Source of the DNA: an uncultured Alphaproteobacteria bacterium
GTDB lineage: Bacteria > Pseudomonadota > Alphaproteobacteria > Rs-D84 > CACZYB01
NCBI GenBank assembly: GCA_934246625.1
Contig: CAKQHZ010000001.1
Coordinates: 232,338 to 296,337, forward strand
DNA: 64,000 bases
Direction of reading: 5' to 3'
The position numbers and the translations under genes were made by a program. Shown piece after piece: positions 20,940 through 38,354 of the stretch (within the stretch, counting starts at the first letter, position 1; each line of letters begins with the position of its first letter). Under the pieces are notes generated by a model. The model saw only the letters and a list, made by a program, of their open reading frames with translations, was not told where the DNA came from and ran no database searches.

Positions 20940-21050
20940 TTTTAAGGAGTTAAAATTGTTAACTATTTGTTTTTGCTAGTATTTTGCAAAAGATAAAATT
21001 CTTTAAATTGATTAAAGTGAGAAATAAAAAATCAGTAAAATCAAAGATTT

Positions 21051-21103
21051 TTTAGTGGTGCCGGCACACGGACTCGAACCGCGGACCTGATGATTACAAA
21101 TCA
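21051..21103 (-). repeat. Partial copy of the tRNA-Thr 3' end plus 6 flanking nt: direct repeat/att site marking the distal island end
   Basis: The 53-bp stretch ttttagtggtgccggcacacggactcgaaccgcggacctgatgattacaaatca is identical to 38274-38326. The sequences diverge immediately after it. Confidence 0.7.
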
Positions 21104-21349
21104 TAAGGGCTATTATTTTACAATTTTTGATTGTAATTTATTTTATTGTATAATCAATATGTTAAATCGTTTTATGAAAATTTTAAGATTTACCAAAATT
21201 GATGTATTTTGACCTTTTTTGATAAAAAATACGGCAATAATTCGGCAATGAAAATTGAATAAAAATCCTTGATTTTAGCAATGTATATACTTATAATTAA
21301 ATTATGATTCGGCAATAAATGAAACAATTAAGGAACAAAGGGTTAAAAA

Positions 21350-22378: not shown

Positions 22379-22435
22379 CATATCAGTTGTTCGAGATTTT
22401 CGAATAACTGATAATCAATAAAACAGGAATATCTT

Positions 22436-23596
22436 ATGTCAAAACAATTTAACTTCACCAAAAAAGATATTGATGCATTGCCAGTGCCAAACAAAGGTTT
22501 TGCCACCTACTCTGACACAACGGAAAAAGGGTTGAAACTCTACATTACTCCAACAAGGACAAAGACTTTCTTTATTCGTAAATTTATAAATGGGCGGGAT
22601 GAACGGCTTATCATAGGTCCGTATCCGGATTTGACTATTTCACAGGCGAGGGAGAAAGCAAGAATTTTAAAGGGGACTATTGCAAACGGCATCAACCCAG
22701 CGGAGGAGAAAAGAAAACTTCGCCGTGATATGACCGTTGCGGAATTTTTTGATTACTACATTACAAATTACTCCACAAAGAAAAAGCGCCCTAATTCCAT
22801 CAGGTCGGAAAAAACTTTGTATAAAAATCATATTGCAGATTTTCTCGGGTATAAAAAGATGACCTTGGTGCAAAAGGCGGACATTGAACGGATTTTAAAG
22901 CCCTTGGTAAATCAAGGCAACTTTGCCACAGCAAACAGGATACTTGCCCTGTTTTCTGGTATGTATAACAGAGCGATTGAATGGGGTTATCCCGATGAAA
23001 ATCCGACAAAGGGGATAAAAAAGCAACGCGAAAAATCACGGGAGAGATTTTTGCAACCTGATGAATTGCCACGATTTTTTGAGATGTTAAACTCTGTTAA
23101 AAATGAGAATTTTAAAAACTATATATTGCTTTCACTTTTTACGGGGCAACGAAAAAATAATGTGCTTTCAATGAAATGGGAGCAGATAGATTTGTCGCTT
23201 GGGATTTGGTTTATACCACACACGAAAAATGGAGAAAGTTTGAATTGTGCGTTGAGTGATGAGGCAATAAAACTTCTCTCTGATATAAAACAAAATACAA
23301 CCTCCGAGTGGGTTTTGCCAAGTGAAACTTCCTCCAGCGGGCATTATGAAGAGCCGAAACGGGCTTGGAGAACCTTGCTTAAAAATGCAGGGATTGAAAA
23401 TTTACATCTTCATGATTTAAGGCGAACCCTTGGAAGCTATCAGGCGATAGGCGGTTCAAGTTTACAAATAATTGGTCAATCTTTGGGACATAAATCCTTG
23501 CAATCTACACAAATATACGCCCGCCTTATCAAAGCTCCCGTCCGCCAAAGCACAAACATGGCCGTCGCGAAAATTTTGGAGTATGCGAAGAGGTAG
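22436..23596 (+). CDS. int: Tyrosine integrase, P4-like (N-terminal arm-binding DUF4102-type domain)
   Basis: KGLKLYITPTRTKTFFIRKF arm domain. Catalytic motifs are HDLRRT and LGHKSLQSTQIYARL (the Tyr nucleophile). Confidence 0.9.
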   Translation: MSKQFNFTKKDIDALPVPNKGFATYSDTTEKGLKLYITPTRTKTFFIRKFINGRDERLIIGPYPDLTISQAREKARILKGTIANGINPAEEKRKLRRDMTVAEFFDYYITNYSTKKKRPNSIRSEKTLYKNHIADFLGYKKMTLVQKADIERILKPLVNQGNFATANRILALFSGMYNRAIEWGYPDENPTKGIKKQREKSRERFLQPDELPRFFEMLNSVKNENFKNYILLSLFTGQRKNNVLSMKWEQIDLSLGIWFIPHTKNGESLNCALSDEAIKLLSDIKQNTTSEWVLPSETSSSGHYEEPKRAWRTLLKNAGIENLHLHDLRRTLGSYQAIGGSSLQIIGQSLGHKSLQSTQIYARLIKAPVRQSTNMAVAKILEYAKR

Positions 23597-23758
23597 GGAT
23601 ATTCATACAAAGTGTGATTTTATGATTGGTAATTGCAGAGTAATTTCAAACCCTAGAGTATATTAACTATGGCGAAAATCCCCAATGGAACAAGAATGGT
23701 TGTATAATTGAGGTGTAGGAGGATAATGTTTATACTTCATCATTTGGAAATGTTCGTG

Positions 23759-24364
23759 TTATTTCGTATGCTCATCTCCAATTTTTATATATTTTCTATA
23801 AATTTCCACAGGATTTAGTTTAAAAATTTCTGTTAATATATCATGCTCTTCATTTACTATTTTTGTTCGCTCATTGTCGACAGGGAGATCTTCTATTTTA
23901 AAATTTAAAATAAATGCTTTCTTAGCTTTATTTAACCATAGTTCAGTATATTCAACAATATCTTTTGGTAAATAAAGTCTTGCTTCTGAAAATGCTTTAT
24001 AAATATAATTATGAGCTTTTGCATTAACATGACCGGCTCTCCAACATTCTGATATAAATGAATTAACCAAATTATAATTATCCAAAAACAATTTTCTTTC
24101 ATCATCTGTTAATACTTGTTTTTGAGTCATAAAATCAATTTCATAATCTTTAAATTTTATACGAGATAAATCCATATATTTAAATATCCAACAAACAAGA
24201 GCTATAATTCCAAAATAAAAACCTTTTAAATCAAATAAAATTAAAATAAAAGATATGACAGGAATTAGCAATAAAAAGAAATATTTTATTGAAATATTAT
24301 ATTGAGATAAATAACTTTCTAAATTTCCATACCAAATTTCTACTTTATTTACTTTCTTATTCAT
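23759..24364 (-). CDS. Hypothetical membrane protein (two N-terminal TM helices)
   Basis: Hydrophobic segments YFFLLLIPVISFILILF and GIIALVCWIF, with a cytoplasmic C-terminal domain. Confidence 0.3.
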   Translation of the reverse strand: MNKKVNKVEIWYGNLESYLSQYNISIKYFFLLLIPVISFILILFDLKGFYFGIIALVCWIFKYMDLSRIKFKDYEIDFMTQKQVLTDDERKLFLDNYNLVNSFISECWRAGHVNAKAHNYIYKAFSEARLYLPKDIVEYTELWLNKAKKAFILNFKIEDLPVDNERTKIVNEEHDILTEIFKLNPVEIYRKYIKIGDEHTK

Positions 24365-24368
24365 ATTT

Positions 24369-24716
24369 TTATTTTCCTTGAAACAATTTATTTAAAATAA
24401 ATTCAAAACCTTCATCTTTTAATTTATCAACAGCTACATAAAAAGGAATATTGTTAGTAAGATAAACTAATGATTTATAGACTGTATTATAATCAAGTTC
24501 TTCATATTTAACTATTTTAACATTTGTAAATATAGATAATGCGTTGATAGATTGTTTATATCTTTCCATAGATTTATTTAATCTATCTTGTAGTTCATTA
24601 AAATTATTTCTCCTTATAACCTCTATATTTTCATGATAAAAAGATATATCTTCTCCTAAATCATAAGAAGATTTCATTATTTTTAATCCTTCATAGACAT
24701 CATCAAATGTAATCAT
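24369..24716 (-). CDS. Hypothetical protein (upstream partner of the membrane protein)
   Basis: ORF only. It lies 4 bp from the downstream gene. Confidence 0.3.
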   Translation of the reverse strand: MITFDDVYEGLKIMKSSYDLGEDISFYHENIEVIRRNNFNELQDRLNKSMERYKQSINALSIFTNVKIVKYEELDYNTVYKSLVYLTNNIPFYVAVDKLKDEGFEFILNKLFQGK

Positions 24717-25148
24717 ATTCTCTATCCTTTCTGTAATTTATTATAATTCTGTATGTTTTTTAATATTCTATTTACATTTTGTTTATTTACAATATTTTAT
24801 TTCCTTCAAAACATACCACATTCAACCTATTTAGCACCGTTCAGCCACCTTTGTAACCGTTTGCAAGCACTTTGAGACTACTTACAACTGGTAAGTAAAG
24901 TGTTTTTTTATTAAGTATAACATATTGAAAAGATGGAGTAAAACTTGAAGTTGTTTTTTTGACTCGAAAGTAGCTTGCCCTAATTCTGCAACCATTTAGA
25001 ATTTTTTTGAACCAAATACCAACCTGTTTGATAGTTTTTATACCATTAGTTAAAGTTCTATACTAATAAAATCTTTACATCCTATATTGAAATTTAAGGA
25101 CATATTTCTTATATAATAATATATAATTGAATTAAGAAAAGGATTAAA

Positions 25149-26615
25149 ATGTTTTATGCAAATTGGATATTTTTCTTAGGTGATAAAGAAAATAAATATA
25201 AAATTTTTGTATATGGACTTTCTTTACCAACAAATAAAAAAGAAAAATATGTTTCTAAATTACAAAAACTTTGTAAAATTGATAATTATAATTTATATAT
25301 GTTATGTGCAATTACAGAGATAAATAATATTATACAAGATAATACTATAAATTTATCAATTATTTCTGATGAATTACCTCAAATAAAATATTTATGTTCA
25401 AAAAAATTTATTCAACCTGCTGACCCAGGAGAGGCATTGTCATATATTAAAAGTCCTATAAATAGTTTAACAAATATTACTAGCTACTATACTAAAGAAA
25501 TTTTAACAAAAGAGTTTTTAAACGAAGATTTAATTATTCTCTTGAAGCAATTAAATGATATATTAAATCAAAGGTTTTATGGAGAATATTCAAAAAGATT
25601 AGGTTGCTTTGAAATAGGAGAAATACAAACTTGGGCAGAAGATATTATTCCATTTTATTTTAAATTTGATAAAAATAATAATGACTATATTTTTCATAAA
25701 AGAAATGATTTTAAAGAAGATCTTTATATTGTTTTAAAATGTTATTTATCAGATAATGAGAAAATATATGAAAATATAAAATTTGTTTCTAAAACAGATA
25801 ATGATATTCAATTCAATGGAATTAAAGAGCATTGGATATATGAAGCTTCTATATATAATAATACAGGAAATTTAATACATGAGGAAAAATATTTCTATAC
25901 AAAACGTATTTGGTTAAATATATGTCCTAAACCTTCAAATAAAATAAAAATAGAAGATGTATATTCTGAAAAAGATGCTAATTTAAGGACTGTAGATTCT
26001 GCTATATTTACTACTCAATCTATAGTAAATAATCCGTATATTGATATTAAATATGATGAAATAGAAAAATTACATAAAAATATAGAACAGAGAATAAACA
26101 ATTATAAAATCTCTGAAAAAGAAGGAGCATTCTTTTCAGAAAAGGATAAATTAAATTCTATAATAAATTATCTTAATTCTATTAACTTAAAAAATGATAA
26201 AATTATCATTATTGATCCTTATATTGATATAGATTCTTTATCATTAGGGTTGAGATTACATTCAAGCGAATTATTGGTGATTTCTTCAAAAAATCCGCCA
26301 CATATGCCAAAATCCAGTATCAAGCAAAATATACAAAATATACTTAAAGTGAAAAAAGAAAATAATATAAACAGTATTAAAGTTCATTTTATTGAAAAAC
26401 GATTTCATGATAGATTTATTATATTTTTTAATAATCATGAAAAAGATATTTATAGTATATCAAATAGTGTTAACTCCTTAAAAACAAATCCTAATATATT
26501 AATTACAAAATTAAATGGAAAAGTTAGATTTGATGTAGAAAAATATCTTGATACATTAATAGAATTATGTAAACCAGAAAATACAGTTGAAGAAATTTTA
26601 AAAAATGATAAATAA
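25149..26615 (+). CDS. Hypothetical protein (unknown cargo gene A)
   Basis: AT-rich ORF. The C-terminal region KIIIIDPYIDIDSLSLGLRLHSS...FHDRFIIF suggests a possible nucleotide-binding or nuclease-like fold. No confident family was found. Confidence 0.3.
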   Translation: MFYANWIFFLGDKENKYKIFVYGLSLPTNKKEKYVSKLQKLCKIDNYNLYMLCAITEINNIIQDNTINLSIISDELPQIKYLCSKKFIQPADPGEALSYIKSPINSLTNITSYYTKEILTKEFLNEDLIILLKQLNDILNQRFYGEYSKRLGCFEIGEIQTWAEDIIPFYFKFDKNNNDYIFHKRNDFKEDLYIVLKCYLSDNEKIYENIKFVSKTDNDIQFNGIKEHWIYEASIYNNTGNLIHEEKYFYTKRIWLNICPKPSNKIKIEDVYSEKDANLRTVDSAIFTTQSIVNNPYIDIKYDEIEKLHKNIEQRINNYKISEKEGAFFSEKDKLNSIINYLNSINLKNDKIIIIDPYIDIDSLSLGLRLHSSELLVISSKNPPHMPKSSIKQNIQNILKVKKENNINSIKVHFIEKRFHDRFIIFFNNHEKDIYSISNSVNSLKTNPNILITKLNGKVRFDVEKYLDTLIELCKPENTVEEILKNDK

Positions 26616-27858
26616 AAAGTTTTGTTTTAAGAAATTAACTGATACTAAACCAGAAGTTGTATTGACTAATTTAATAAAAAAATTTAACTCTAGGAGAAAT
26701 ATTAAACTTATAAAATATGTTGAAGCATTATCATTATTATCTCATATAAGAAATGAAAAAATTTTTAAGTATCAATTAATAAAAATATTGAAAACAAAAT
26801 TACTTAATAATATTTATAATAAATTAGAGGATTTACCTAGTACTTTTGATGAGATTAATATAGATATATCAGAAATTGATAGTTTAATTAACTCAGAATT
26901 ATCATATAAATTAATAGACAATATTGCAAAAACTGAAATTAATATAAATAAAAATTATAAATATTATGGAATCCGTAACTTATTTCAATATTTATTGGAA
27001 ATAGATTTACAAAATTTTGAAAAATTTATATCAGAAACAAATAGAGATGATTTTAAAATAATATTTGTAAGTATTCTTTTATCTATATTTCCAATATTAG
27101 AAGATATATATAAAAATTGGGATAAAGCTACCTTAGGTATTTTACAGGCATATTATGCAAATATATACTACAATAATAATCCTCACTATTGGCAATTTAA
27201 TTTAAATAAAAATAAAGAGATTAATACAATATTAAAAACAAACTTACCTAATAAAAGTAAATTTATAATATATTTGAAGTATATTATTCAGAAATATCAC
27301 GGTAAAAAATTCACTAATTTATTAAAAGATAGTGAAATTGACAATTTAGTAAATAACCTATTATCTATAGATTATAACTTCACTTGTGAAGAACTATTTG
27401 CTCAATCTCCAGTTTTTTATTCTTCAATATATTTGATAATTATAGATAATGTTTCTGATAAAAAGAAACAATACGAATTTGCTTCTTTCTTATATGAAAA
27501 ACTCATAAATTGTATTGAAAAAAATAATTCAGAATATTATGTTCAATACATAGAATATGCAAATATATTGGGTGATTTAACTATAATTATGAATAATTTT
27601 GATAAACTAGATAAATTATTTAATCAAAATTATAAACAATTATTATTTCCATATAGTTTTTGTAAAAGACAAGATTGGAATGAAAAGATATTATTATTAC
27701 TTTATATACTAATATCAATAAAAATAGTATATGATGGAAATGATATTTCCAACTACTTACATAAATTTAAAGAAGTAAAGGGCAAGCACTTGACAATGCT
27801 AGAAAAAATAAATCCTGATATCTATAATCAGATAATCAAACAATTAGACAATAATTAA
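26605..27858 (+). CDS. Hypothetical protein (unknown cargo gene B, overlapping A by 11 bp)
   Basis: ORF only. It is helical and repeat-like, and translationally coupled to gene A. Confidence 0.3.
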   Translation: MINKKFCFKKLTDTKPEVVLTNLIKKFNSRRNIKLIKYVEALSLLSHIRNEKIFKYQLIKILKTKLLNNIYNKLEDLPSTFDEINIDISEIDSLINSELSYKLIDNIAKTEININKNYKYYGIRNLFQYLLEIDLQNFEKFISETNRDDFKIIFVSILLSIFPILEDIYKNWDKATLGILQAYYANIYYNNNPHYWQFNLNKNKEINTILKTNLPNKSKFIIYLKYIIQKYHGKKFTNLLKDSEIDNLVNNLLSIDYNFTCEELFAQSPVFYSSIYLIIIDNVSDKKKQYEFASFLYEKLINCIEKNNSEYYVQYIEYANILGDLTIIMNNFDKLDKLFNQNYKQLLFPYSFCKRQDWNEKILLLLYILISIKIVYDGNDISNYLHKFKEVKGKHLTMLEKINPDIYNQIIKQLDNN

Positions 27859-27940
27859 AAGAAATAAGCTCTTATAATGGAACATACAAAATATAAATAT
27901 TAAAATCAATGTTAATATATATTTAGATAATTATGTATTA

Positions 27941-29749
27941 TTATGATTCTTTAATCTTATTCAACCAAAATAAATACCATTTATCCTGAATATGTTCTTT
28001 AATTTTATTCTCAATACTAAGAGTATTCAATTTGTTATTTTCTAAACAAAAATTATATAGAATTAAAAATTTAGATAAAGGATAACCCTTTTTATGTTTA
28101 TTTTTAGGAAATAAATATTCTTTTAAATAATGTATATTTTTACATGATCTAATTTCATCCATATTATAAATTACAGAAGATGCATCATTATAGTCACGTT
28201 GTAAAATGAAACTACGTAAATCATTGTATTCATCTTTTAAGTCTGGTAATAAACGAAAAAGAATAGATGAAACTTGTCTAGTTAAAAATGAATTTTTGAT
28301 CCAAAGATTTCGATATTTATTTATATGTTCATAGATAGATTTTGGTGTTTCATATTTAGCAGCAAACCATAAGTAACTATAAAAATTAAATTCTTTATCC
28401 TTAATAGTTAATGATTTTAAATATTTAGATATATAATTTATATTTTCAATATCCACTCTTGAATATCCAATATTCCAATCTATAATTAAAGCAACCAATA
28501 AAAATAACGTTATATCATCATATCTTGTAATATTTATCAATGATTGAAAAATTTTATATGTTTTTTTAGTATATCCTAATTTATATAAATATTGACATAC
28601 ATTAGTTCTCAGATCTGAATATTCTTCAAAAATTCTTGGTAAATATTTTAAGATTTTAGTAAAATTGTTATTTCCAGCAATAGTCAAAAATCTTTTTAAA
28701 ACCTTATCAAAATTTTTATATTGTTTATTCTTGTTCCAATGTCTTCTAAAATATTTCATAAACTCTTTTTCTTTTGGGGGATTTTTGTCAAATATATTTA
28801 ATTGAATATTTTCGTCAAATAAAAAATGTCTTTTTGCCTCAGAAGCATCAAGAATCTTTGTTTTTGACATATTAAGAGACAATCCTCTACTTTTTAAAAC
28901 ATCAGATATATTGCTTAAAATTGACTTAGCCTCCCTTATATCATCAATACCAATAACAATATCATCCATCCATCTTACAAAATTTTCATTTATTTGATAT
29001 TTTAATAAGTAATCAATTTCAAAAAGAAAAGAATGTGCTAATAGTCTAATTGCTTCTAAATTAATTGTAGGCATTCCAATTGATTGATTGGGTAAATAAT
29101 CTGGTTTCCATGATAAATCTTCAATTATATTAAAAATTAAATCTAATAAAACTTCGTCACATTTGATATACCCAGAAACTACACTTCTTAACTCATTTAA
29201 CCGTATACTATCAAAATAATTTGATAAATCTGTTATAATAATATATTTTTTTGTTTTTGTAAATTGAAGAATTTCATTTTGATATATTTTCCATTGTTCA
29301 AACCAATCATTATAATCCGTATTTATTTCATGAGGAAGTTTAATAGAAGAACTTTTATCTCTAGAATAATAAGCATGATTTGAAGGTGCCTGTTTTTCTA
29401 AATCATTACAAAAAGGTTCTATAAGAGCTTGTAAAATAAGAGTGTCACTAGGAGATAAAATAATCATATGGCGACAAATGCCAAATTTTTTCTCTAATGT
29501 ATATATAATTGGTATTTGCGATTTATATTGACCAGAAATAATTTGTTCATTAATTTTACTTGTATTATAATCTATTCTTCTATGAAAATCATAAAAATCA
29601 TGTAAATCAAGAATACTCATACTCCTTACTTGACTCTTAACTTTATGTTTCCATAATGTTTTTAAAGTATCCTTTTTAAATGGATTTTCTAACTGTTTTT
29701 GCCTTTTTTTAAATCTTAACGTTATAGGTTTAGACATTTTAAAACTCAT
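27941..29749 (-). CDS. Reverse transcriptase, stand-alone Abi/defence-type (AbiK/Abi-P2/UG-like), with an RT domain plus a roughly 300-aa helical C-terminal extension
   Basis: RT motifs are FGICRHMIILSPSDTLILQALIEP (1/2), IITDLSNYFDSI (A), GMPTINLEAIRLLAHSF (B'), FVRWMDDIVIG (C, with MDD replacing YxDD) and SLNMSKTKIL (D). There is no maturase, endonuclease or intron-like domain. Confidence 0.8.
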   Translation of the reverse strand: MSFKMSKPITLRFKKRQKQLENPFKKDTLKTLWKHKVKSQVRSMSILDLHDFYDFHRRIDYNTSKINEQIISGQYKSQIPIIYTLEKKFGICRHMIILSPSDTLILQALIEPFCNDLEKQAPSNHAYYSRDKSSSIKLPHEINTDYNDWFEQWKIYQNEILQFTKTKKYIIITDLSNYFDSIRLNELRSVVSGYIKCDEVLLDLIFNIIEDLSWKPDYLPNQSIGMPTINLEAIRLLAHSFLFEIDYLLKYQINENFVRWMDDIVIGIDDIREAKSILSNISDVLKSRGLSLNMSKTKILDASEAKRHFLFDENIQLNIFDKNPPKEKEFMKYFRRHWNKNKQYKNFDKVLKRFLTIAGNNNFTKILKYLPRIFEEYSDLRTNVCQYLYKLGYTKKTYKIFQSLINITRYDDITLFLLVALIIDWNIGYSRVDIENINYISKYLKSLTIKDKEFNFYSYLWFAAKYETPKSIYEHINKYRNLWIKNSFLTRQVSSILFRLLPDLKDEYNDLRSFILQRDYNDASSVIYNMDEIRSCKNIHYLKEYLFPKNKHKKGYPLSKFLILYNFCLENNKLNTLSIENKIKEHIQDKWYLFWLNKIKES

Positions 29750-29819
29750 TAAATATTATTTTGCAAAAATATATTATCTTTATAAGTCTTTTTCAATAAA
29801 AAATATGAATTATTATCTT

Positions 29820-32800
29820 TTATCCAAACAATCTATCCAGTTCTTCTTCTAAAATACCTTCCTTAACAAGAGGAAGTGTATCAACTTGTTTCAAATTATG
29901 TTTTTGAATGAAATTTTCATTATCGAAACCAAGGATATATGATATAGCAATACGATAAATTATTTCTGTCGGTGCTAATCCATAAACTTGCTTTTCAAAA
30001 ATATGCTTTAATCTATCTTTTGAATCAGGATAAATCTTTATCAATTTAGGATTATTATATAATCGTTTTACAATTTCAGTGATATATAATCCTGATTTCA
30101 TATATAAATCAATAAATGTTTTATCTGGATCTGTAAAGCAATCTGGACATTCTTTTTCTAAATTATCTACCATTTCTTTTACTACTTTTTTAGGCGTAAA
30201 GATTTGGTTTGTTTTTTGTGGTGGAATATAATCAAAAATATCCTCAGTGTTATTTTCATCAAAATAATTGGAAAGTTTAGTTTTCAAATTTAAGAATTCC
30301 TTAATGGAATCATTGAAAACAATAGGATCAAATAGATGTCCATCAAAATGCTCCATTTTTCCTGTTTTTTCATCTTTATAATCTCCACCATCACGTAAAA
30401 ACTTAAATTCAGCAAGAGAAATACTTGTAACTTCTTTAAATACTTCATCTGGTATAATTGTATCAAAGTTTTCTAATGTTGTGTTTTCATTACCATAAGC
30501 CATTAAAAATGAAGGTATTGTTCTTGAAAAACCTCTTAAATAGTCTCGAACTGAATCTTCTATGGCTGTTTTTTCTTTTTGCCTTTTATCTGTTTCTACT
30601 CTTTCAATAATTGTATTTCCTGTATTTTGAATAAGTTCAGGAAGTTTATTCTTCAATTCTGAAATAAATGTTGTTTTGTTTTCAGCAACTTTCAAATCAT
30701 ATAGTTCATTAATTTTATCTTTTTCAAAATCAGATGCTGTTTTTAATTCTTTTTTTCGTTCTAATTCTGTCTGATTTTGTAAGATTTTATAATTACCATA
30801 TTCTTTATCAAAAACCTGATTTGTTGTATTTAATATTGTTTGAGTAATTTTCTTTAAAGAGCTGGTTGTTACAGCATTTTTGTAGTTTGTTTTTACTGTA
30901 TCAACAAAAGTTTCTTCAACTTTAGCTTTAAATGTATCTTTTAATTCTTTTAATTTCTCATCATCTTGTTCAGGTTGGTTATTTTGCAATTCATTTACAG
31001 TTTCAACTAAATCTTTATTAATACTTTCATAAATCTTATCTCCAAATATTTCATTCGCTTGACCAATAATAAAGTTTTGTGAAAGTTCTACTTCTCCATC
31101 TTCATTTAAAGATAAATCATCTTTTGTATTTTGATTAATTGGTAAAGGTTCTTTTGTCTTTTCAAATTTTTTTATAATATCAACAACTTCTTGTGGTGCA
31201 TTGAATATGTTTCCAATATTCTGGAATAAGAAATTACTCATAAAACCACGTTGAACGACTTCTTGTGCATGGATTTTACGAGGAATAGATAATACCTGTT
31301 CAGCCTTAAGAAGTATCATTTCACCATCCTCATCTTCACCATAAACAGGGAAAAAGTTTAAAAGTTCTCTAACATTTTGTTTCCTTGTATCACTATCACC
31401 TTGTCCACTTGTTGTATTTATACTTAAATCGTTAGCAAATTTTTCAACAATTTCCAAAGTTCTTGCTGGATCAAAATCAAATACATAAGCATTTTCTTTT
31501 CTAAAGAATTGTCTATCTTTATGGAATATACAAGGATTTTGCGACCTGAAAGCTGTTTGCATATATAATGCTGGACTTTTAACATTACCAAGCATTAAAA
31601 CTGCTGTCCATTCAGGAATTGTAATTCCAGTAGTTAATTGTCCTACAGATAGAGTAATTGTCTTTTCATAATTCTTTATGCCATTAACAACTTTATTAAA
31701 TGCATTTTCACGTTCTTCGTCTTCATTAAGTTTACCATCCCCAGCGGCAACAATAATTTCATAATTTTTAAATATAGGGTGATTTTTTAATTTTTTTGCC
31801 AAAGCTTTAACACTACCAACTCTATCTAAAAACCAGAATGTATGATTAAGTTCATCTCTTAATTCTTGAGTTGAAAATGGAAATTTAGTTTTTATAGTTA
31901 ATGCATCCAAAAATTTATCAACGGCTTCATCATACTTAAAACTTCCATTTTCATTTGTTGAAAAGAATTCATTCAAATCAAAAGCATATTCTCTAATATC
32001 ATCATCAGATAAATTGCATCCCTGTTTTACCTTGTCTTCAATAATATCTGACATCTTATATGTATAAAGATTTAATTGAGGTAAGTTTTGATAAGGATTT
32101 TCTTCTTCGTTTGATGTATCCCAATTTTTTTTTGCATTTTGTTCATCAGCATAAGTCCAATTAAATATAGCTTTCTCTTCAAATTTATTATTTGCTAAAG
32201 CTTTAAATGGCGTTCCAGATAAATGAAGTGTAAATTTTCTTTTTATTTGATCAAAGGCAATGTCAGTATGATATGTATCAACACCTTCATGTGCTTCATC
32301 AATTACTAATAAATCCCAGTCTAAATCTTTAATCTCTTTAAGTTTATCATATTTTCCACCAAAGTAGATTGACCCTTTTAAATCTTGTAATGATACAAAT
32401 TCAATACATCCTTTATGATTTCCATCGTTAAGTTTATTTAAGTATTCTTCTCTTGATAGAACATATTCTTTACTTTTCAAAGTACTAACTTGACTAACAA
32501 AATAATATCCTGAATTGGTACCTAAAAACCTTTCATAATCAGCATACCAAGAATTAGCAATAGCTGGTCTATTCGTTACAATTAAAACTTTTTTTGCATT
32601 TATCTGTTTGCATAAGTCATAAGTTGATAATGTTTTACCAAATCTAGGTTTTGCATTCCATAAAAATTCTGGTTCATCATCTTTATGACTTTCAAAATAT
32701 TCTTTTGTTTGAGAAACAGCATTAAATTGCTCATTTCTAAGTTTGTATTCTATTACAGGTTTTGTTTCTAAAATTCCTCTGTTTTCTTTAAATTCATAAA

Positions 32801-33119
32801 ATTTTTCTTTTGAATCTTTTGGGGATATTTTAAACCATTCTGTATCCGGTTTTCTTTCAATATTGTTTTTCTTAAGGTAAGCGTGAAAATCTGTATCATG
32901 GAAAACCTCGCCAGAACCATCCTCATATATAGCATTAGATTTCCATTCCAATACAAATTTTACATCTGCAGTTTGAGTTTGCTGTTTTATACGAGTTTCG
33001 ACATCTTGTTCTGTAAAACCAATCTTTGTCCATCCATCATGTTCTTTAATCTCAGGAGTTGTATATGCATAACACATAGGGACAATTTTCTTTAATGTTT
33101 TAATATTTAGTTTTACCAT
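29820..33119 (-). CDS. Multidomain protein: N-terminal T5orf172 (GIY-YIG-like) domain, SF2 helicase (ResIII-type, DEAH), long linker, and a C-terminal degenerate MTase N-lobe
   Basis: CYAYTTPEIKEHDGWTKIGFT...VETRIKQ is T5orf172-like. Helicase motifs are Walker A NAKPRFGKT, LLVIDEAHEG and LSGTPF. The C-terminus carries IFTPKKVVKEMV (motif X), FIDLYMKSGLYI (degenerate motif I) and QVYGLAPTEIIYRIA (motif II), with no NPPY. The start is taken at the internal MVKLNIK, 1 nt after the upstream gene's stop. The track start at 33155 overlaps the upstream gene. Confidence 0.7.
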   Translation of the reverse strand: MVKLNIKTLKKIVPMCYAYTTPEIKEHDGWTKIGFTEQDVETRIKQQTQTADVKFVLEWKSNAIYEDGSGEVFHDTDFHAYLKKNNIERKPDTEWFKISPKDSKEKFYEFKENRGILETKPVIEYKLRNEQFNAVSQTKEYFESHKDDEPEFLWNAKPRFGKTLSTYDLCKQINAKKVLIVTNRPAIANSWYADYERFLGTNSGYYFVSQVSTLKSKEYVLSREEYLNKLNDGNHKGCIEFVSLQDLKGSIYFGGKYDKLKEIKDLDWDLLVIDEAHEGVDTYHTDIAFDQIKRKFTLHLSGTPFKALANNKFEEKAIFNWTYADEQNAKKNWDTSNEEENPYQNLPQLNLYTYKMSDIIEDKVKQGCNLSDDDIREYAFDLNEFFSTNENGSFKYDEAVDKFLDALTIKTKFPFSTQELRDELNHTFWFLDRVGSVKALAKKLKNHPIFKNYEIIVAAGDGKLNEDEERENAFNKVVNGIKNYEKTITLSVGQLTTGITIPEWTAVLMLGNVKSPALYMQTAFRSQNPCIFHKDRQFFRKENAYVFDFDPARTLEIVEKFANDLSINTTSGQGDSDTRKQNVRELLNFFPVYGEDEDGEMILLKAEQVLSIPRKIHAQEVVQRGFMSNFLFQNIGNIFNAPQEVVDIIKKFEKTKEPLPINQNTKDDLSLNEDGEVELSQNFIIGQANEIFGDKIYESINKDLVETVNELQNNQPEQDDEKLKELKDTFKAKVEETFVDTVKTNYKNAVTTSSLKKITQTILNTTNQVFDKEYGNYKILQNQTELERKKELKTASDFEKDKINELYDLKVAENKTTFISELKNKLPELIQNTGNTIIERVETDKRQKEKTAIEDSVRDYLRGFSRTIPSFLMAYGNENTTLENFDTIIPDEVFKEVTSISLAEFKFLRDGGDYKDEKTGKMEHFDGHLFDPIVFNDSIKEFLNLKTKLSNYFDENNTEDIFDYIPPQKTNQIFTPKKVVKEMVDNLEKECPDCFTDPDKTFIDLYMKSGLYITEIVKRLYNNPKLIKIYPDSKDRLKHIFEKQVYGLAPTEIIYRIAISYILGFDNENFIQKHNLKQVDTLPLVKEGILEEELDRLFG

Positions 33120-33120
33120 A

Positions 33121-33501
33121 TTACACCATCTCCTTTTTATCCAATTGAATTCCATTTACTTTTGTTTTTAATTGTTCAATTAGTTTATATTTATGTTTTT
33201 TGATATAATATTTACGTAAAAATAAAGAAATAATTTCTATAAATAATCCAATAAAATAAATATACACGTTATCTATATATAAAGTTTCAAAAATATTAGA
33301 AATGGTAAAAGATAAGATACCAACACATTTTAAATATCTTTCTTTTAAATATTCTTCTATCAAATTTGTATTACAATCTAAATATGTTGAACTTTTTGCT
33401 AAAATATGCTCATCTGAATCTAAATTACATATTATTAATATAATACCAAATATTTGCAAAATAAGTTTTAATACAGTAGATAAACTTAAATAAATAAACA
33501 T
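33121..33501 (-). CDS. Small membrane protein (3 predicted TM), translationally coupled to the helicase gene
   Basis: Hydrophobic segments LILQIFGIILIICNL, VGILSFTISNIF and IYFIGLFIEIISLF. The TAA stop lies 1 nt before the downstream ATG. Confidence 0.35.
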   Translation of the reverse strand: MFIYLSLSTVLKLILQIFGIILIICNLDSDEHILAKSSTYLDCNTNLIEEYLKERYLKCVGILSFTISNIFETLYIDNVYIYFIGLFIEIISLFLRKYYIKKHKYKLIEQLKTKVNGIQLDKKEMV

Positions 33502-33516
33502 TTTTACTCATCTCCT

Positions 33517-34506
33517 TTAGACAGTTTTTTGTTCAATATACTTTATTTCTTCTAATGTAAGATTATATTTTTCATATAAATCTTTGTTGTTCCATTTCTT
33601 TGAAAAATCTTGGATAGGTACAAATTTATAAACATTTCTTGCTGCATTTTGTGATTTTTTTATTTGAGATATTAAGTATTTATATAGATTAGTATTCATA
33701 TATGAAATAACATTTTCACATATTTCTTTACTATCAAATGGTCCCACAACTAAATATGTTTCATTACAAGCTGTTCCTGGTGCTCCATAGAATGGTAATC
33801 CATTAAATTTTGCAGAAATTTCTCCTGCTTTTGATACATAAACTTTATGCTGATCAATCCATTCTTTTTTAGAAATAATTTTATTTCTATCTATATATGC
33901 AAACTTTTCATCTGAACGATCTCGAGAAAATCTATAAATTTTAATGGAATTTTTTTCTTTTTTATTTGAAAAATAATTTTTATAATTTCCAACTTTTCCA
34001 TTAGCAAAAGGAGAATATGTTGAAACTAAATCCATAAATGATGCAAAATCTTTAGAATATATTCCAACTTTAGTTACTATTTCATCAGCTTTTGGATCTC
34101 TTATAAAAAATTCTGTTCCATGTTCAGCCATGTTCCTAATATCTGTTTTCACTATATCGCCATCTATATAGGTATATTTTGTATGTGCTGTAACATTTTT
34201 ATCATATATAAAGTATGATACACCACCAGCTAAGGAAATATTTGTTTGAAAAACCTTATTTGCATCAGTATAATCAACCATAGATGAAATATGATTATTT
34301 TTTAACATAAATTTTCTAAATTCATCTAAACCAGTTCCACCTGTCATCCATAAACTTGGTGTAATCATAGAAACATAATTAGCTTTTAAATTAATTGCAC
34401 TTTGTACAAAATGATGATAAACAGGATTTGCTTGAGAAATAGATCCTGAATTATTTGCAACTAATTCCTGATAAGGTGGGTTTCCAATTATAACATCAAA
34501 CTTCAT
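33517..34506 (-). CDS. N6-adenine DNA methyltransferase catalytic and target-recognition half (gamma-class, Eco57I/TaqI-like)
   Basis: The protein begins at motif IV: MKFDVIIGNPPYQ. It lacks the AdoMet-binding motifs X and I, which are found in the upstream ORF. Confidence 0.75.
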   Translation of the reverse strand: MKFDVIIGNPPYQELVANNSGSISQANPVYHHFVQSAINLKANYVSMITPSLWMTGGTGLDEFRKFMLKNNHISSMVDYTDANKVFQTNISLAGGVSYFIYDKNVTAHTKYTYIDGDIVKTDIRNMAEHGTEFFIRDPKADEIVTKVGIYSKDFASFMDLVSTYSPFANGKVGNYKNYFSNKKEKNSIKIYRFSRDRSDEKFAYIDRNKIISKKEWIDQHKVYVSKAGEISAKFNGLPFYGAPGTACNETYLVVGPFDSKEICENVISYMNTNLYKYLISQIKKSQNAARNVYKFVPIQDFSKKWNNKDLYEKYNLTLEEIKYIEQKTV

Positions 34507-35438
34507 TTTTTAGCTCCTTTCAAATCTTTGAAATAGATAGTTTTTCCACTACGCCAATCTTTGATTTTGCAAAGTATTGGTGTCGAAAGTTGTATATCTG
34601 TATTAAATAAATCTGGTTGAAAATAATCTTCTTCTGTTGTTGCAAATGGTACAGTATCGTTTAAACCATCCATCTGCCATATATTCCATGAAATAATATT
34701 TGCAATTTGCTCAATCTGTATAAGACTTGGTTCTTTATGATATTTATTCTGATAGTAATCAATAAAAGTCCAAAGCAAATTTTCCCTTGCCAATAATAAA
34801 TTATCGCCTTGGTATTCATAACCATAGGTACTTTCAAATGCTCGCTTAACCCAATTAAACCAATCTGTATCATTATTTGTGTTTTCGTTAACGACACGAA
34901 GTTTTCTATCTAAAATACCTATACGTTTTATGATTGGTAAGATTTCACCAGTTGTGGTATCATATCTTGAAACTAAATATGGTGCCTCACCACAAGTAAT
35001 TTCAAGTCTTCTTGAATCGACATAACTTTTCCAATCCTTGTCGTTAAAATCTATAAATCTTTCATTTGGTATCCAATCTTGATTTTGTTGGATATTGAAT
35101 ACATTTTTGTAACCAAACCATTCTTCATCACAAAGATTATTCATTTCATTACAAATCCAAGATGGAGTGAAAACTTCTGCTGATTTATGGGTACGATTTT
35201 TTTGTTCTTCTTTGTTTTTGGCAATTCTTGGCTGAATAATAGAGGTATTCTTATCAATAATTAATTCAGGTAAGATTTCTTTTTCTTTTGAATAATCATC
35301 ACCATATTTTAGATATTCATCGCATGCCCAATGGATATATCTCCCTGTTGTCTTATCCCTTAGTAATATCTTTAAAAGATAAGGACTTAAGACATGTATA
35401 TATTGCTCAAGAATATCTATGTTACTTTCAATAACCAT
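34503..35438 (-). CDS. N6-adenine MTase N-terminal (AdoMet-binding) half; a split MTase or a frameshift-separated gene
   Basis: AEVFTPSWICNEM is motif X-like and LEITCGEAPYL is motif I-like. The ORF overlaps the NPPY ORF by ATGA. Confidence 0.5.
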   Translation of the reverse strand: MVIESNIDILEQYIHVLSPYLLKILLRDKTTGRYIHWACDEYLKYGDDYSKEKEILPELIIDKNTSIIQPRIAKNKEEQKNRTHKSAEVFTPSWICNEMNNLCDEEWFGYKNVFNIQQNQDWIPNERFIDFNDKDWKSYVDSRRLEITCGEAPYLVSRYDTTTGEILPIIKRIGILDRKLRVVNENTNNDTDWFNWVKRAFESTYGYEYQGDNLLLARENLLWTFIDYYQNKYHKEPSLIQIEQIANIISWNIWQMDGLNDTVPFATTEEDYFQPDLFNTDIQLSTPILCKIKDWRSGKTIYFKDLKGAKK

Positions 35439-35554
35439 CTTTTTAGATGCGGAAAATAATATCCACCCATATTAATTTTCATTGATTATTGAGAATTTTT
35501 TGCTAAAATATTGAGAGAATTTTATTAATAGAACAGTAAAATATATGGGTCATT

Positions 35555-36163
35555 TTATATATGCTTTTGTAAATGATTTTTTATATATTTATTGAGTGTT
35601 GGTTTAGTAATTTTTAGTTTTTTTGCAACAATATATTTGGGTAATCCTAATCTTAAAAGACTAATGATTTTATCTTTTTTCTCTTCAAGTTTATTGTGCT
35701 TATTTTTACTTCCCTTCGGTCTTCCAATTGTGGAACCTTCTAAAAGTCTGCGTTTCAATCCCTCTATAGTCCTTTGACTTATCAAATCTCTTTCCATCTC
35801 TGCAAATGCACTTAAGATTGCTATCATCATCTTTCCCATAGGGGTGTTATCAATCGACATTCCTTGCTTTACAAGATAACAATTCACACCTTTTTTCACA
35901 AGCAACTGACAAGTATTTATAACATCACTTGTTGATCTTCCAAGTCTAGATAGTTCTGATGTTATAAGCACGTCTCCTTTATCCAATATTTTTAGTAAGG
36001 TTCCCAGTTTACGTTTCTTTGCAAGAATTGTGCCACTGACACCTTCATCAATATATTCTTTATCTATTTTCCAATTCATTCTGTTTACAAAATCTATTAC
36101 TCCAAGTTTTTGACTTTCATAGTTTTGCAATTCTGTAGATACTCTGTAATATGCATATATCAA
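35555..36163 (-). CDS. Serine recombinase (resolvase/invertase), paralogue of the 14406-14993 gene
   Basis: MIYAYYRVSTELQN, SELSRLGRS, and a C-terminal HTH. Confidence 0.8.
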   Translation of the reverse strand: MIYAYYRVSTELQNYESQKLGVIDFVNRMNWKIDKEYIDEGVSGTILAKKRKLGTLLKILDKGDVLITSELSRLGRSTSDVINTCQLLVKKGVNCYLVKQGMSIDNTPMGKMMIAILSAFAEMERDLISQRTIEGLKRRLLEGSTIGRPKGSKNKHNKLEEKKDKIISLLRLGLPKYIVAKKLKITKPTLNKYIKNHLQKHI

Positions 36164-36495
36164 TTATCTTTCTCCTGTTCCATTTCTAAAAGTTCTTGGA
36201 TTTCTTTAAAGTTTTCAATATCCTTTATTTTTTCTTCCTCATCAATAAACTGTAAAATAAGACAAATAGCCCTTACATCTCCATTTAATCCCTTTTGTAT
36301 AAGTGATATACATAATTTCTCTTTAAAACTAATTCCATCAGGTGATTTATTTTCCAATAAGTCATTTAATATTTTCTTAAATTTTCGTTTTTCTCTTCTT
36401 ACTTTACCGCTGGCAATACCACCTTTTTGAGCAATTTTTCTTTGTTCTTCCGTGGTTCGTTTATTTATTGGTATTAAGTTTTTATTATTTGACAA
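36160..36495 (-). CDS. Small basic protein, hypothetical (overlaps the recombinase by 4 bp)
   Basis: TEEQRKIAQKGGIASGKVRREKRK basic patch. It may be DNA-binding. Confidence 0.3.
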   Translation of the reverse strand: MSNNKNLIPINKRTTEEQRKIAQKGGIASGKVRREKRKFKKILNDLLENKSPDGISFKEKLCISLIQKGLNGDVRAICLILQFIDEEEKIKDIENFKEIQELLEMEQEKDN

Positions 36496-36663
36496 TTTTA
36501 ATATCCTTTATTAAATCCTACATGGTATATTATATGTTTCCCAAAATTTAATACTTTGGTATGAATAAAAAGTATAAGATAAATATCAATTTTTGAACTT
36601 ATCAAACATATATAAATTAAATGAAGTTTTAAAATTTGATACATACAATAGTAAAAAATGATA

Positions 36664-37056
36664 CTATCTTGCATTTTTATATTCTTTCCATTCATTAGTT
36701 GGCGGATTATTATTATAATTTAGAAATGTAAGAATATAAGTAGTGGCCATTTTATATGTAAACATACCCTTTTTATTAACCTTTATAAAACCTTTATCTA
36801 TTAGTTCATGCGATGCTTTACTAAAAGTATTCTTTGATAAATTACATAACTTAGCACCTTCTGCAATCCCTACTCCAATTTCTCCATTATTCATCCCATT
36901 ATATCTGCGAATAAATAATAGCAAAACAGTTTTTGCAGATGATGATAACCTTATATAATTAATATTATCAAACATTTGATGTGTGATTTTTATAAATCTC
37001 TCTTTATTTTTTCTTCCCATTGTTTTTTCAAATTTATTAACTTTGCGTTTAATCAT
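36664..37056 (-). CDS. Hypothetical winged-helix-like protein
   Basis: LSKNTFSKASHELIDKGFIKV is an HTH-like segment. The ORF overlaps the AlpA gene by 8 bp. Confidence 0.3.
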   Translation of the reverse strand: MIKRKVNKFEKTMGRKNKERFIKITHQMFDNINYIRLSSSAKTVLLLFIRRYNGMNNGEIGVGIAEGAKLCNLSKNTFSKASHELIDKGFIKVNKKGMFTYKMATTYILTFLNYNNNPPTNEWKEYKNAR

Positions 37057-37264
37057 AATAAACCTCCGTATTTATAGTTTTACTTTTCAACCATTCATAG
37101 AATTTGTCTTCCGGATAAAGAATAATTTTACCAAGTTTTATATATGGTAAATCTTCCCATCCTTTTGCTTTGATACAGCGGTGATGATTAAGGGTTGATA
37201 ATTTTATGCCTAATATTGTGGCTACTTCTTTTTGAGTTAGATATTGTGTTTTCATATCAATCAT
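37049..37264 (-). CDS. AlpA/excisionase-family HTH regulator
   Basis: LTQKEVATILGIKLSTLNHHRCIKAKG...PYIKLGKIILYPEDKFYEWL matches the HTH_17/AlpA pattern. It is positioned near the att/tRNA end of the island. Confidence 0.7.
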   Translation of the reverse strand: MIDMKTQYLTQKEVATILGIKLSTLNHHRCIKAKGWEDLPYIKLGKIILYPEDKFYEWLKSKTINTEVYYD

Positions 37265-37381
37265 ATTTTATCTCCTCTTTTTTTTATTAATATTAAGGAA
37301 TTATCTCATTCCTTTGTTTATAAGAGGTAATATAGATTGATATTTTTAAAAAGAAATCCCAAAAGGCGCTTTTGGGGTCAA

Positions 37382-38071
37382 TTATTTTTTTATAAGTTTA
37401 CTATAATATTTTTCTGCGGTCTTATCACAAACATCTTCTTTTTCCATAATATAGTTTATTTTACTCATATACTTAGTACAATATTTCGGAAAATATGCAT
37501 CTGGATTTGCTAAGTATGTTTTCTTGAATTTTCTAAATTTATTAACTCCCTTTTTTGCTCCATTATTTCTATTATGCTTAGTAATAATTGGCTTTGTATC
37601 TTCTTTGATGACACTTCTAAATCCTGTATATATTAAAATACTTTCTAATTTAGCCAATAATATTATATAATTATAAGCCTCTGAGTTAGTGTAAATTTCT
37701 TTTTCAATATCGTAATTATTTTCAATTTCAAAACTTGCTATTATAAAAATTGAAATTATAACAGTTTCAAAAGTTCCTAATAAAGATACGCCTATTATTT
37801 TTTCATATTTTTGCTCAAAATCTTCTCTAATACTTACATGAGAATAACGAGATTCTACACTAAAATATTCAATTAAATTAAATATATTTTCATATTCTTT
37901 ACTAATATCTTTAATAATCGTAATTATCTTATTTATGTAATCATCATCAAATGAAGATGTTACAAATAAAATTCTATCTATATCTTTACTTAAATAAGAA
38001 TAAATTTGAGATTGTTTTAAATGACATCTTTCTTTTAAATATTTTGAATAAAGTGATTCGTCAATTAACAT
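37382..38071 (-). CDS. Hypothetical protein
   Basis: ORF only. Confidence 0.3.
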   Translation of the reverse strand: MLIDESLYSKYLKERCHLKQSQIYSYLSKDIDRILFVTSSFDDDYINKIITIIKDISKEYENIFNLIEYFSVESRYSHVSIREDFEQKYEKIIGVSLLGTFETVIISIFIIASFEIENNYDIEKEIYTNSEAYNYIILLAKLESILIYTGFRSVIKEDTKPIITKHNRNNGAKKGVNKFRKFKKTYLANPDAYFPKYCTKYMSKINYIMEKEDVCDKTAEKYYSKLIKK

Positions 38072-38278
38072 AATATACCCTTCTATTTTAAAATAGATAC
38101 AGCTACTATTCTACTTCTTATATCCAGCTCTATTTTAAATATAATTCCACAATAATCAAATCTTTTTCCCCTGCAAATTTCTGCAAAAATTCGGCAATGA
38201 TTCGGCAATGGAAATTTTGCACGCAAAACTCATCGTTCTTACTAACTTCATAACTCATTGATTTTTGGATGGTTTTAG

Positions 38279-38354
<76 letters not shown>

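Follow-up and report, generated by a model that had tools for sequence, protein, structure and literature searches.

In this study, we have analyzed three adjacent minus-strand genes in a 64,000-nucleotide (nt) stretch of contig CAKQHZ010000001.1 from an uncultured alphaproteobacterium (positions 232,338 to 296,337 of the contig; this whole stretch is here called the window). The genes are designated A (34503..35438), B (33517..34506), and H-K (29820..33119). A first-pass annotation of the window, made from its letters alone, had proposed that the nuclease-helicase encoded by H-K ends in the N-terminal half (N-lobe) of a gamma-class DNA methyltransferase (MTase), that the catalytic NPPY motif is encoded separately in B, and that A encodes a further N-lobe, so that one catalytic half would have two alternative partners. 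The parts of this proposal were followed up by profile searches, structure prediction, and comparison with related loci.

H-K, a putative nuclease-helicase

The longest open reading frame (ORF) of H-K, from 29820 to 33155 on the minus strand, encodes 1,111 amino acids (aa); from the ATG at 33119 the product has 1,099 aa. This ATG, which the first-pass annotation had already chosen, is probably the true start, since an AAGGAGA Shine-Dalgarno (SD) sequence precedes it and the N termini of 95%- and 33%-identical homologues coincide with it. Homologues are 1,094 to 1,124 aa long at 99% coverage, in 120/120 of the matches listed. Near the N terminus lies a putative nuclease domain of the T5orf172 (GIY-YIG-like) type (32805..33071, minus strand; Pfam PF10544, aa 29 to 117, E value of 2e-4), whose residues K32, G34, R43, D75, H79, and E94 are conserved in a 54-sequence alignment and intact in the window protein. 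It is followed by a superfamily 2 (SF2) helicase motor with two RecA-like domains (31245..32747, minus strand), recognized by the Pfam families ResIII (aa 137 to 317, 4e-14) and Helicase_C as well as by structure prediction and Foldseek; the Walker A sequence AKPRFGKT and the DEAH box are invariant in the alignment, and both are intact here. A long helical (coiled-coil) connector (30525..31079, minus strand) then leads from the motor to the C-terminal domain, which we call the K-lobe; the connector region is missing from the short, 830-aa helicases of the K-B type systems described below.

The AlphaFold2 model of the whole protein had a predicted local distance difference test (pLDDT) score of 85.4 and a predicted template modeling (pTM) score of 0.77. 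In the numbering of the 1,099-aa product, it comprises an alpha/beta nuclease-like domain (1 to 113), two RecA-like domains (129 to 625), four long helices that form the connector (681 to 865), a small domain (868 to 948), and the K-lobe (977 to 1098). The top PDB match of the full model in Foldseek was the Type ISP enzyme LlaBIII (4xqk; E value of 5e-12, more than 1,050 aligned columns), with a global TM-score of about 0.23, a low value of the kind expected for a multidomain model. Next came Snf2-family ATPases, ZorD, and SauUSI, which matched the motor alone; over this part, the Snf2-type ATPases scored nearly as well as LlaBIII. Library searches gave no NCBIfam match and no meaningful PADLOC match for H-K, and sequence searches of the PDB with the whole protein, either as a single sequence or as a 7-sequence profile, returned only marginal matches to UvrB and RapA.

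An MTase N-lobe at the C terminus of H-K

The K-lobe (29823..30281, minus strand) carries, in the numbering of the 1,111-aa ORF, motif X (IFTPKKVVKEMV, aa 985 to 996), motif I (DLYMKSGLY, aa 1016 to 1024), and motif II (VYGLAPTE at 1057, within a motif that spans 1057 to 1070), all located as originally described; the chain ends 45 aa past VYGLAPTE. The MTase-like domain is therefore present, but it measures about 150 aa (153) rather than the 110 first estimated. A hidden Markov model (HMM) was built from the N-terminal ~180 aa of some 100 single-chain proteins related to B. It matched H-K at aa 965 to 1066 with 66.6 bits (E value of 8e-23 for a search space of one sequence), whereas its score on protein A was just 5 bits. 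With a profile of 26 K-lobe sequences, the N-lobe of CamA was found in the PDB (E value of 2.6e-4, residues 27 to 151), with motifs X, I, II, and III aligned. Profile searches, which had been suggested as a check on the annotation, thus gave significant matches to MTase N-lobes; single-sequence Pfam and NCBIfam searches with the C-terminal 216 aa of H-K returned nothing meaningful.

The last 153 aa were also modeled separately (pLDDT, 87.4; pTM, 0.78). The model consists of the motif X helix (motif X being IFTPKKVVKEM) followed by a beta1-alphaA-beta2-alphaB-beta3 half-Rossmann fold, with helices at 31 to 44, 65 to 75, and 106 to 117 and strands at 56 to 58, 99 to 103, and 129 to 132. Its Foldseek matches in the PDB, at a probability of 1.0, were the gamma-class adenine MTases CamA, LlaGI, DrdV, LlaBIII, BrxX, and EcoKI HsdM; these include the Type ISP enzymes LlaGI and LlaBIII, with the first of which a comparison had been recommended. 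By sequence and predicted structure, the K-lobe is a genuine N-lobe, corresponding to the N-terminal half of a gamma-class N6-adenine MTase (motifs X, I, and II and beta3), with the noncanonical residues discussed below. It is among the most conserved stretches of H-K in the 54-sequence alignment and is present in every one of the 80 genome loci retrieved by a helicase query, save two whose contigs end before it. The H-K polypeptide has no motif IV (NPPY) and no beta4 to beta7; the chain stops at what, in relatives, is the K/B junction.

B carries the NPPY half of the enzyme

The 329-aa product of B (33517..34506, minus strand), which opens with MKFDVIIGNPPY, supplies the NPPY catalytic half. 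It matched the second half of the Pfam Eco57I model (positions 73 to 171, E value of 8e-24) and the PADLOC models MTase_II (2e-46) and REase_MTase_IIG (positions 1011 to 1324), and along its entire length it shares 42 to 45% identity with the last two-thirds of ~500-aa single-chain MTases of the Eco57I family. Its C-terminal region is presumably the target-recognition domain (TRD). A scan of positions 27900 to 36200 found one NPPY-type motif, that in B, which agrees with the earlier statement that the only NPPY of the locus stands in a separate ORF opening at this motif.

H-K ends where fused homologues continue into B

When the last 251 aa of H-K were compared with 1.8 billion cluster representatives, 914 clusters matched at an E value of 1e-3 or lower. 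Among the best 150 of these 914 clusters, 59 were H-K proteins like that of the window and 34 were H-K-B fusions of 1,320 to 1,530 aa, in which the K-lobe runs straight into B. When aligned with the fusions, the window H-K tail and B are colinear ('...LEEELDRLFG' plus 'MKFDVIIGNPPYQ', compared with '...VLEERFGEEMKFDVIIGNPPYQ' in fusion P0427), and the H-K stop falls exactly where the fused homologues go on with MKFDVIIGNPPY. The idea that the locus is a rearranged version of an ancestral single-chain enzyme was, therefore, partly right: H-K-B single chains do exist, accounting for about one-third of the clusters of the family, and the window H-K stops at their K/B junction.

The ~500-aa single-chain MTases consist of the K-B unit plus an extra Cys-rich insertion ahead of the junction; one example is the 503-aa protein of Sedimentisphaera (CP021023), which is accompanied by an A'. 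This insertion of about 70 aa lies between motif III and NPPY (consensus, ...HTWxNGKCxFCGAS...HAYEFIH), looks like a zinc ribbon from its sequence, and is absent from H-K and H-K-B; its carriers include genes of loci L004 (7962 to 9509) and L005 (7998 to 9530) and about 100 single-chain K-B proteins (P0131 to P0240).

The existence of fused H-K-B and A-B versions raises the question of whether H-K is merely a truncated or frameshifted Type ISP-like gene and the separation of A from B a pseudogene or an assembly error, and frameshifted B or K modules are indeed present in L018, L023, L026, L043, and L072. However, the stop position is kept in 120/120 homologues among the matches listed and in nearly all complete helicase genes across phyla; those in the genome loci share the same end point except for two H-K-B fusions and one frameshifted copy (L072). 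Furthermore, the K-lobe is one of the best-conserved parts of H-K, the split junctions between A and B are encoded by many differing sequences, each with its own SD and ATG, and the 70 nt between the H-K stop and the next gene, like the rest of the locus, hold no remnant of a second NPPY. We consider artifact or decay highly improbable and effectively refuted; the termination of H-K after its N-lobe, without NPPY, is a conserved property of the family and not a sequencing error or a truncation. A homopolymer slip or programmed frameshift at the junction of A and B was also considered and set aside as a general explanation, because the window has only an A6 run at this point and the other split loci differ in their junction sequences, each of which has an SD and an ATG.

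A is a second, canonical N-lobe

Gene A (34503..35438, minus strand), into which the 5' end of B extends by 4 nt, encodes a stand-alone N-lobe of 311 aa that has no NPPY. Its motifs X (EVFTPSW), I (LEITCGEAPYL), II (YGYEYQGDN), and III (NIWQMDGL) are readily recognized, and the protein matched the PADLOC model MTase_II PDLC03390 from end to end (3e-102); there was no Pfam match and nothing meaningful in NCBIfam. Because a profile of the long A proteins had no match in the PDB, their MTase nature was argued through homologous proteins of 210 to 260 aa, designated A' (hhalign probability of 98.4%, E value of 4e-15). The A' proteins have textbook motifs (HGEVFTP, LEPACGEGAFL, LYGIELLEDN, and NIVQGDFL), and their profile matched HsdM (3ufb, 1.6e-4) and MmeI (5hr4, 1.1e-3). 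In addition, natural A-B fusions occur in 31 loci; their junction, '...LKGEKKMKFNVVIGNPPY', corresponds to the end of the window A ('...LKGAKK', then the stop) followed by 'MKFDVIIGNPPY'. A and B therefore fit a two-subunit gamma-class MTase, A contributing motifs X and I to III and B contributing motifs IV to VIII and the presumed TRD. This homology, together with the fusions and the canonical motifs, bears out the proposal that the ORF preceding B is another N-lobe.

The two N-lobes are only distantly related. Pairwise BLAST aligned motif X alone (E value of 0.04), and hhalign of the two profiles did likewise (probability of 42%). Since the alignment is confined to motif X, A and K are ancient, distinct lobes and not recent duplicates.

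The K-lobe lacks the canonical AdoMet-site residues

The lobes also differ at the residues expected to contact S-adenosylmethionine (AdoMet). In 319 K-lobes, motif I reads D-[LP]-x-x-K-S-G, with Lys in 99% at the position of the first Gly, and motif II reads Q-x-[YF]-G-x-A-[PI]-[TS]-E, with Ala in 92% at the position of the acid that binds ribose in gamma-class enzymes. The window K-lobe conforms to this pattern (DLYMKSG and YGLAPTE) and so has neither the canonical motif I loop (D/E-P-x-C-G-x-G) nor the motif II acid, expected two positions past the Gly. The substitution of Lys for the first Gly had been noticed from the start but was taken for local degeneration; it is instead a conserved feature of this N-lobe family. 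In contrast, motif I Gly is present in 100% and motif II Glu or Asp in 99% of A proteins, and both A and A' retain the canonical residues. A similar difference is seen with CamA, the orphan gamma-class adenine MTase of Clostridioides difficile (PDB 7lni), which is closest to the K-lobe among solved structures in both structure and sequence: CamA is a complete single chain with a canonical motif I (SCGCGNFL) and an acid in motif II (YGADID). From the replacement of the motif I Gly by Lys and of the motif II acid by Ala, we infer that A is the AdoMet-binding lobe and K a pseudo-lobe. The suggestion that the K-lobe is a SAM-sensing regulatory module is accordingly the least supported of those made at the outset.

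The modules recur in several layouts

To classify the ORFs of 172 related loci, we used local HMMs that represent A, A', B, K, and the core of the helicase (H). There were two sets of loci, one found with a helicase query in species-representative genomes and one found with a K-B query in metagenomes. With separate genes divided by a slash and fused modules joined by a hyphen, the helicase-found set (about 90 loci) comprised 31 A-B/H-K loci, plus 4 with a frameshifted B; 27 loci of the window type, A/B/H-K, plus 3 with a split B; and single examples of A/H-K/B and A/H-K-B (L085). The metagenome set contained 48 A'/K-B/H loci, in which H is the short, 830-aa helicase without a K-lobe; 12 A'/K-B loci whose contigs end downstream; 14 loci with A or A' next to H-K-B; and 6 K-B loci with no A detected in the 0 to 7 nt of upstream sequence that they have.

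The four modules are thus combined in no fewer than five fusion layouts; all loci but L061 have just one B, and every complete system examined has H, K, A, and B. The window, with A, B, and H-K as separate genes, is the fully disassembled version and hence the clearest case. The covalent linkages A-B and K-B use the same junction. An orphan A or A' lies directly upstream of K-B or H-K-B in 74/74 metagenome loci with upstream sequence, so the apparently complete K-B MTase of these loci is not left without a canonical lobe. The contigs of six more H-K-B genes were identified; five of these genes have a small A or A' directly upstream, and the sixth, at L089, has none and is the exception. The statement that two alternative N-lobes exist for one catalytic half consequently extends to the relatives examined, both lobes being found in every complete related system, almost always with one B.

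Irregular copies were also seen. L061 has a second B and an A downstream, the disrupted helicase gene of L054 contains an A-B in inverted orientation, and L072, L018, L023, L026, and L043 have the frameshifted modules already mentioned; these copies suggest frequent decay or rearrangement.

B modules do not follow a single partner. The closest relatives of the A-linked B of the window are K-linked, those of L004 (42% identity) and L087 (41%), whereas other A-linked B proteins are at most 34% identical; conversely, the K-linked B of L085 is closest to A-linked B proteins (51%). Because of this reciprocal pattern, the sequences indicate that B modules have swapped partners between A and K in evolution.

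The family has many members. The helicase query and the A query each gave at least 8,000 candidates, of which every one scored was significant, and in a one-genome-per-species collection a relative is encoded by at least 596 candidate stretches. Hosts are found in the Firmicutes, Bacteroidota, Actinobacteria, Proteobacteria, and Planctomycetota and in one archaeal bin, and they include gut Collinsella, Bifidobacterium, Streptococcus, and Prevotella; Streptococcus mitis and Enterococcus moraviensis are among the carriers. The archaeal copy (L025; JAFQBW010000045.1, a metagenome-assembled genome of Methanocorpusculum sp.) is a full, 59%-identical A/B/H-K system binned with a methanogen and reflects either interdomain transfer or a binning error.

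The layouts bear on one way of reading the K-lobe, namely, that K·B is itself an active MTase, like that of a normal Type ISP enzyme but with an AdoMet site of an unusual kind, and that A is an accessory that methylates the second strand with another B, regulates the enzyme, or senses AdoMet. The K-B and H-K-B proteins do look like complete gamma-class enzymes, and they are classed as MTase_II or Type IIG by PADLOC models derived from REBASE; some active enzymes have a residue other than Gly in motif I, such as the Ala of M.TaqI; and the H-K-B gene of L089 has no A on its contig. The sufficiency of K·B is, however, hard to reconcile with the orphan N-lobe, with canonical motifs X, I, II, and III, at 74/74 K-B and H-K-B loci. 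The absence of the motif I Gly from 99% and of the motif II acid from 92% of K-lobes also counts against it, as do the translational coupling of A to B in the window, through their 4-nt overlap, and the fusion of A to B in many relatives. On balance, we regard an active K·B enzyme as improbable.

Fused genes retain a start signal at the B junction

A start codon that follows a strong SD sequence marks this junction in the 35 fused genes analyzed. The median energy of the anti-SD duplex is -7.6 kcal/mol at the junction, compared with -2.7 kcal/mol at 454 other in-frame ATGs within these genes (Mann-Whitney test, p = 1.2e-10). This result was replicated with 53 nonredundant metagenome junctions (-7.7 versus -1.9 kcal/mol, p = 4.6e-24), of which 45 have ATG and 8 have GTG. 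Six Bacteroidota loci, with energies of about 0 kcal/mol, are exceptions; the Streptococcus and Enterococcus members of the same A subclade keep the SD. Bacteroidota make little use of SD sequences. The retention of an SD and a start codon at the junction suggests that free B is probably made even from fused genes, that is, in every layout.

Proposed mechanism

Based on these data, we propose that A, B, and H-K constitute a modular Type ISP-like restriction-modification (R-M) system in which one catalytic and specificity module serves two enzymes; we put the probability of this reading at roughly 0.55. B would complete the Rossmann fold with either N-lobe, A or K. The A·B complex would be the modification MTase, and H-K·B would be the restriction complex, in which the K·B pseudo-MTase domain would recognize the same sequence as A·B, would sense whether the target adenine is methylated, and would couple this information to ATP-driven translocation and cleavage. 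A single specificity determinant, the TRD of B, would thus be common to restriction and modification, which would yet stay physically separate. Given the Lys in motif I and the Ala in motif II of the K-lobe, H-K·B is probably unable to methylate, or can do so only poorly. Domain complementation between the helicase lobe and the NPPY subunit, one of the options raised in the first-pass annotation, is the option best supported by the comparative evidence, since A-B, K-B, and H-K-B fusions share a junction and B swaps contexts. The physical complementation itself, the mutual exclusivity of the two N-lobes, the loss of AdoMet binding by K, and the restriction, nuclease, and translocase activities are all inferred from sequence. 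A sharper formulation can be offered tentatively as a half-fold swap: B might be an active MTase with A and, with K, a dead, methylation-sensing reader that licenses the nuclease-helicase, with internal starts supplying the free B.

Several points weigh against the proposed shared-module system. The fused layouts would need either displacement of the N-lobe in cis or free B from an internal start, and the SD signal at the junction might be left over from gene fusion or result from purine-rich codons in the linker. The proposed loss of AdoMet binding by the K-lobe is argued from its motifs; the invariant Lys might contact the cofactor in another way, and M.TaqI tolerates Ala at the corresponding motif I position. 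No A lies on the 12-kb contig that carries the H-K-B gene of L089. Because the loci are related by descent, the counts given above do not represent independent events, and the literature searched held no biochemistry for this family.

The most plausible competing explanation, ahead of an active K·B and of artifact, is that the K-lobe is a static docking element or adaptor, which tethers H to intact A·B or A-B through another surface and never replaces A. The result would be a holoenzyme like the Type III Mod-Res or Type I M2S-R complex, and the whole complex could still methylate. The commonest layout, A-B (31 loci), is a covalently complete MTase from which the displacement of A looks costly, and the K-lobe model folds confidently alone (pLDDT, 87); the Res and HsdR subunits of known systems, moreover, dock on intact MTases. 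Against a tether, K joins B in K-B and H-K-B at the same junction as does A, which puts it in the position of a canonical N-lobe and not at the periphery. A half-Rossmann fold normally exposes the beta1 edge that pairs with beta4, and the SD and start codon at the B junction suggest that free B is available for the orphan lobe. We therefore view static docking as possible but rather unlikely and retain the shared-module proposal.

If this proposal is true, it would represent a new R-M principle, in which a split catalytic domain is complemented by alternative halves, one of which is a pseudo-enzyme half. With the half-fold swap, identical specificity of the two activities would be guaranteed in a way not recognized before, and the restriction complex would be kept from accidentally protecting phage DNA. 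The presence of an orphan N-lobe beside apparently complete K-B MTases would be explained, and the methylome-based assignment of specificities to such systems would need both A and B. Since B is portable between partners, the system could also be a scaffold for engineering split, switchable DNA MTases or programmable motor-nucleases.

Comparison with known systems

The fused H-K-B relatives share with Type ISP enzymes the order nuclease, SF2 helicase, connector, gamma-class adenine MTase, and TRD, and a single TRD, as in those enzymes, would serve restriction and modification. Type ISP enzymes are single polypeptides, however, a feature met in fused relatives only (34/150 cluster representatives; L085, L087 to L091, and L093 to L098); in the window, the NPPY/TRD half has a gene of its own, the MTase being cut between motifs III and IV. 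The Type ISP nuclease is an Mrr PD-(D/E)xK domain, unlike the T5orf172/GIY-YIG-like domain of H-K, and the present system differs further in its motor-borne N-lobe without canonical AdoMet motifs and in its second, canonical N-lobe protein.

The Type I (HsdS/HsdM/HsdR) and Type III (Mod/Res) systems have a specificity element common to methylase-only and motor-nuclease complexes and an SF2 motor subunit that relies on the MTase for DNA recognition, both of which are also proposed here. Those systems share whole, competent MTase subunits, whereas the shared unit proposed here is half an MTase domain and the N-lobe differs. In addition, Type III systems have a beta-class Mod and a Res with a C-terminal PD-(D/E)xK nuclease, in contrast to the gamma-class motif order (X, I, II, III, NPPY) and the N-terminal T5orf172 domain of the window system, and searches of NCBIfam and PADLOC gave no Type III match for the window proteins.

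The arrangement is reminiscent of the DnmA-YeeB-YeeC clusters, which encode an MmeI-like MTase, an SF2 helicase, and a T5orf172 protein (PMC9973331). Like the window, these clusters combine a gamma-class MmeI/Eco57I-like MTase with a helicase and T5orf172 in defense islands; they consist, however, of three whole, separate proteins in a different gene order, with no split MTase and no duplicated N-lobe. Rebuilding of an MTase fold from two polypeptides has precedents in M.AquI, M.EcoHK31I, and bisected M.HhaI (PMC2836561, PMC3439449). These split enzymes are C5-cytosine MTases with one fragment of each kind and have neither alternative N-fragments nor a link to a motor-nuclease.

No known comparator combines a motor-borne pseudo-N-lobe with a second, canonical N-lobe for one NPPY/TRD module. 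The architecture was not described in the full-text literature searched, although subscription journals or REBASE notes may hold a description. The pieces are catalogued by REBASE-derived PADLOC models as Type II MTases or Type IIG enzymes, and the parts bear generic names such as 'DEAD/DEAH box helicase', 'restriction endonuclease subunit M', and 'Eco57I ... domain-containing protein'.

A small ORF and the surrounding genomic island

An insertion of about 380 bp between B and H-K carries a 126-aa hydrophobic ORF with its own SD (33121..33501, minus strand), for which library searches gave no family match. As a result of this insertion, the AAGGAGATG..TAA.ATG junction is present in duplicate. 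L092, a 95%-identical relative, lacks the insertion, and its B and H-K are 13 nt apart. The ORF was considered as a system component and set aside as a lineage-specific insertion; it is probably not a core part of the system. K-B type systems have an unrelated small ORF (87 to 220 aa) at the same position.

The whole A/B/H-K system lies within an integrative island of about 17.2 kb (21050 to 38326), bounded by a perfect 54-bp direct repeat (21050 to 21103 and 38273 to 38326) that is the 3' half of a tRNA-Thr(TGT) gene located at 38279 to 38354. The GC content of the island (0.19 to 0.29) is below that of its flanks. Since this tRNA-repeat-bounded, lower-GC island carries the entire system, the system sits on a mobile defense island. 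At the left end are plus-strand genes for a tyrosine integrase (22436 to 23596; Phage_integrase and Arm-DNA-bind_3 domains) and a RhuM-family protein (21350 to 22378). Directly upstream of A is a minus-strand gene for an Mpi-family serine invertase (35555 to 36163; NCBIfam); a segment that it might invert was sought, and no convincing inverted repeats were found in the 23- to 39-kb region. A resolvase gene also flanks the system in the related locus L001, in divergent orientation.

Directly downstream of H-K, a minus-strand gene (27941 to 29749) encodes a 602-aa reverse transcriptase that matched the PADLOC model RT_UG13a from end to end (2e-178). RT_UG13a is a class of defense-associated reverse transcriptases (DRTs). 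In relatives, the system occurs without this neighbor; in L001, SMC-like and DUF2130 genes take its place. Farther downstream are two overlapping plus-strand genes, one for a 488-aa protein with a VPA1262-family N-terminal domain (25149 to 26615; NCBIfam, 6e-23) and the other for a 417-aa protein with no family match (26605 to 27858). The GC content reaches its minimum for the window, 0.19, at this gene pair, which is possibly another two-gene defense candidate.

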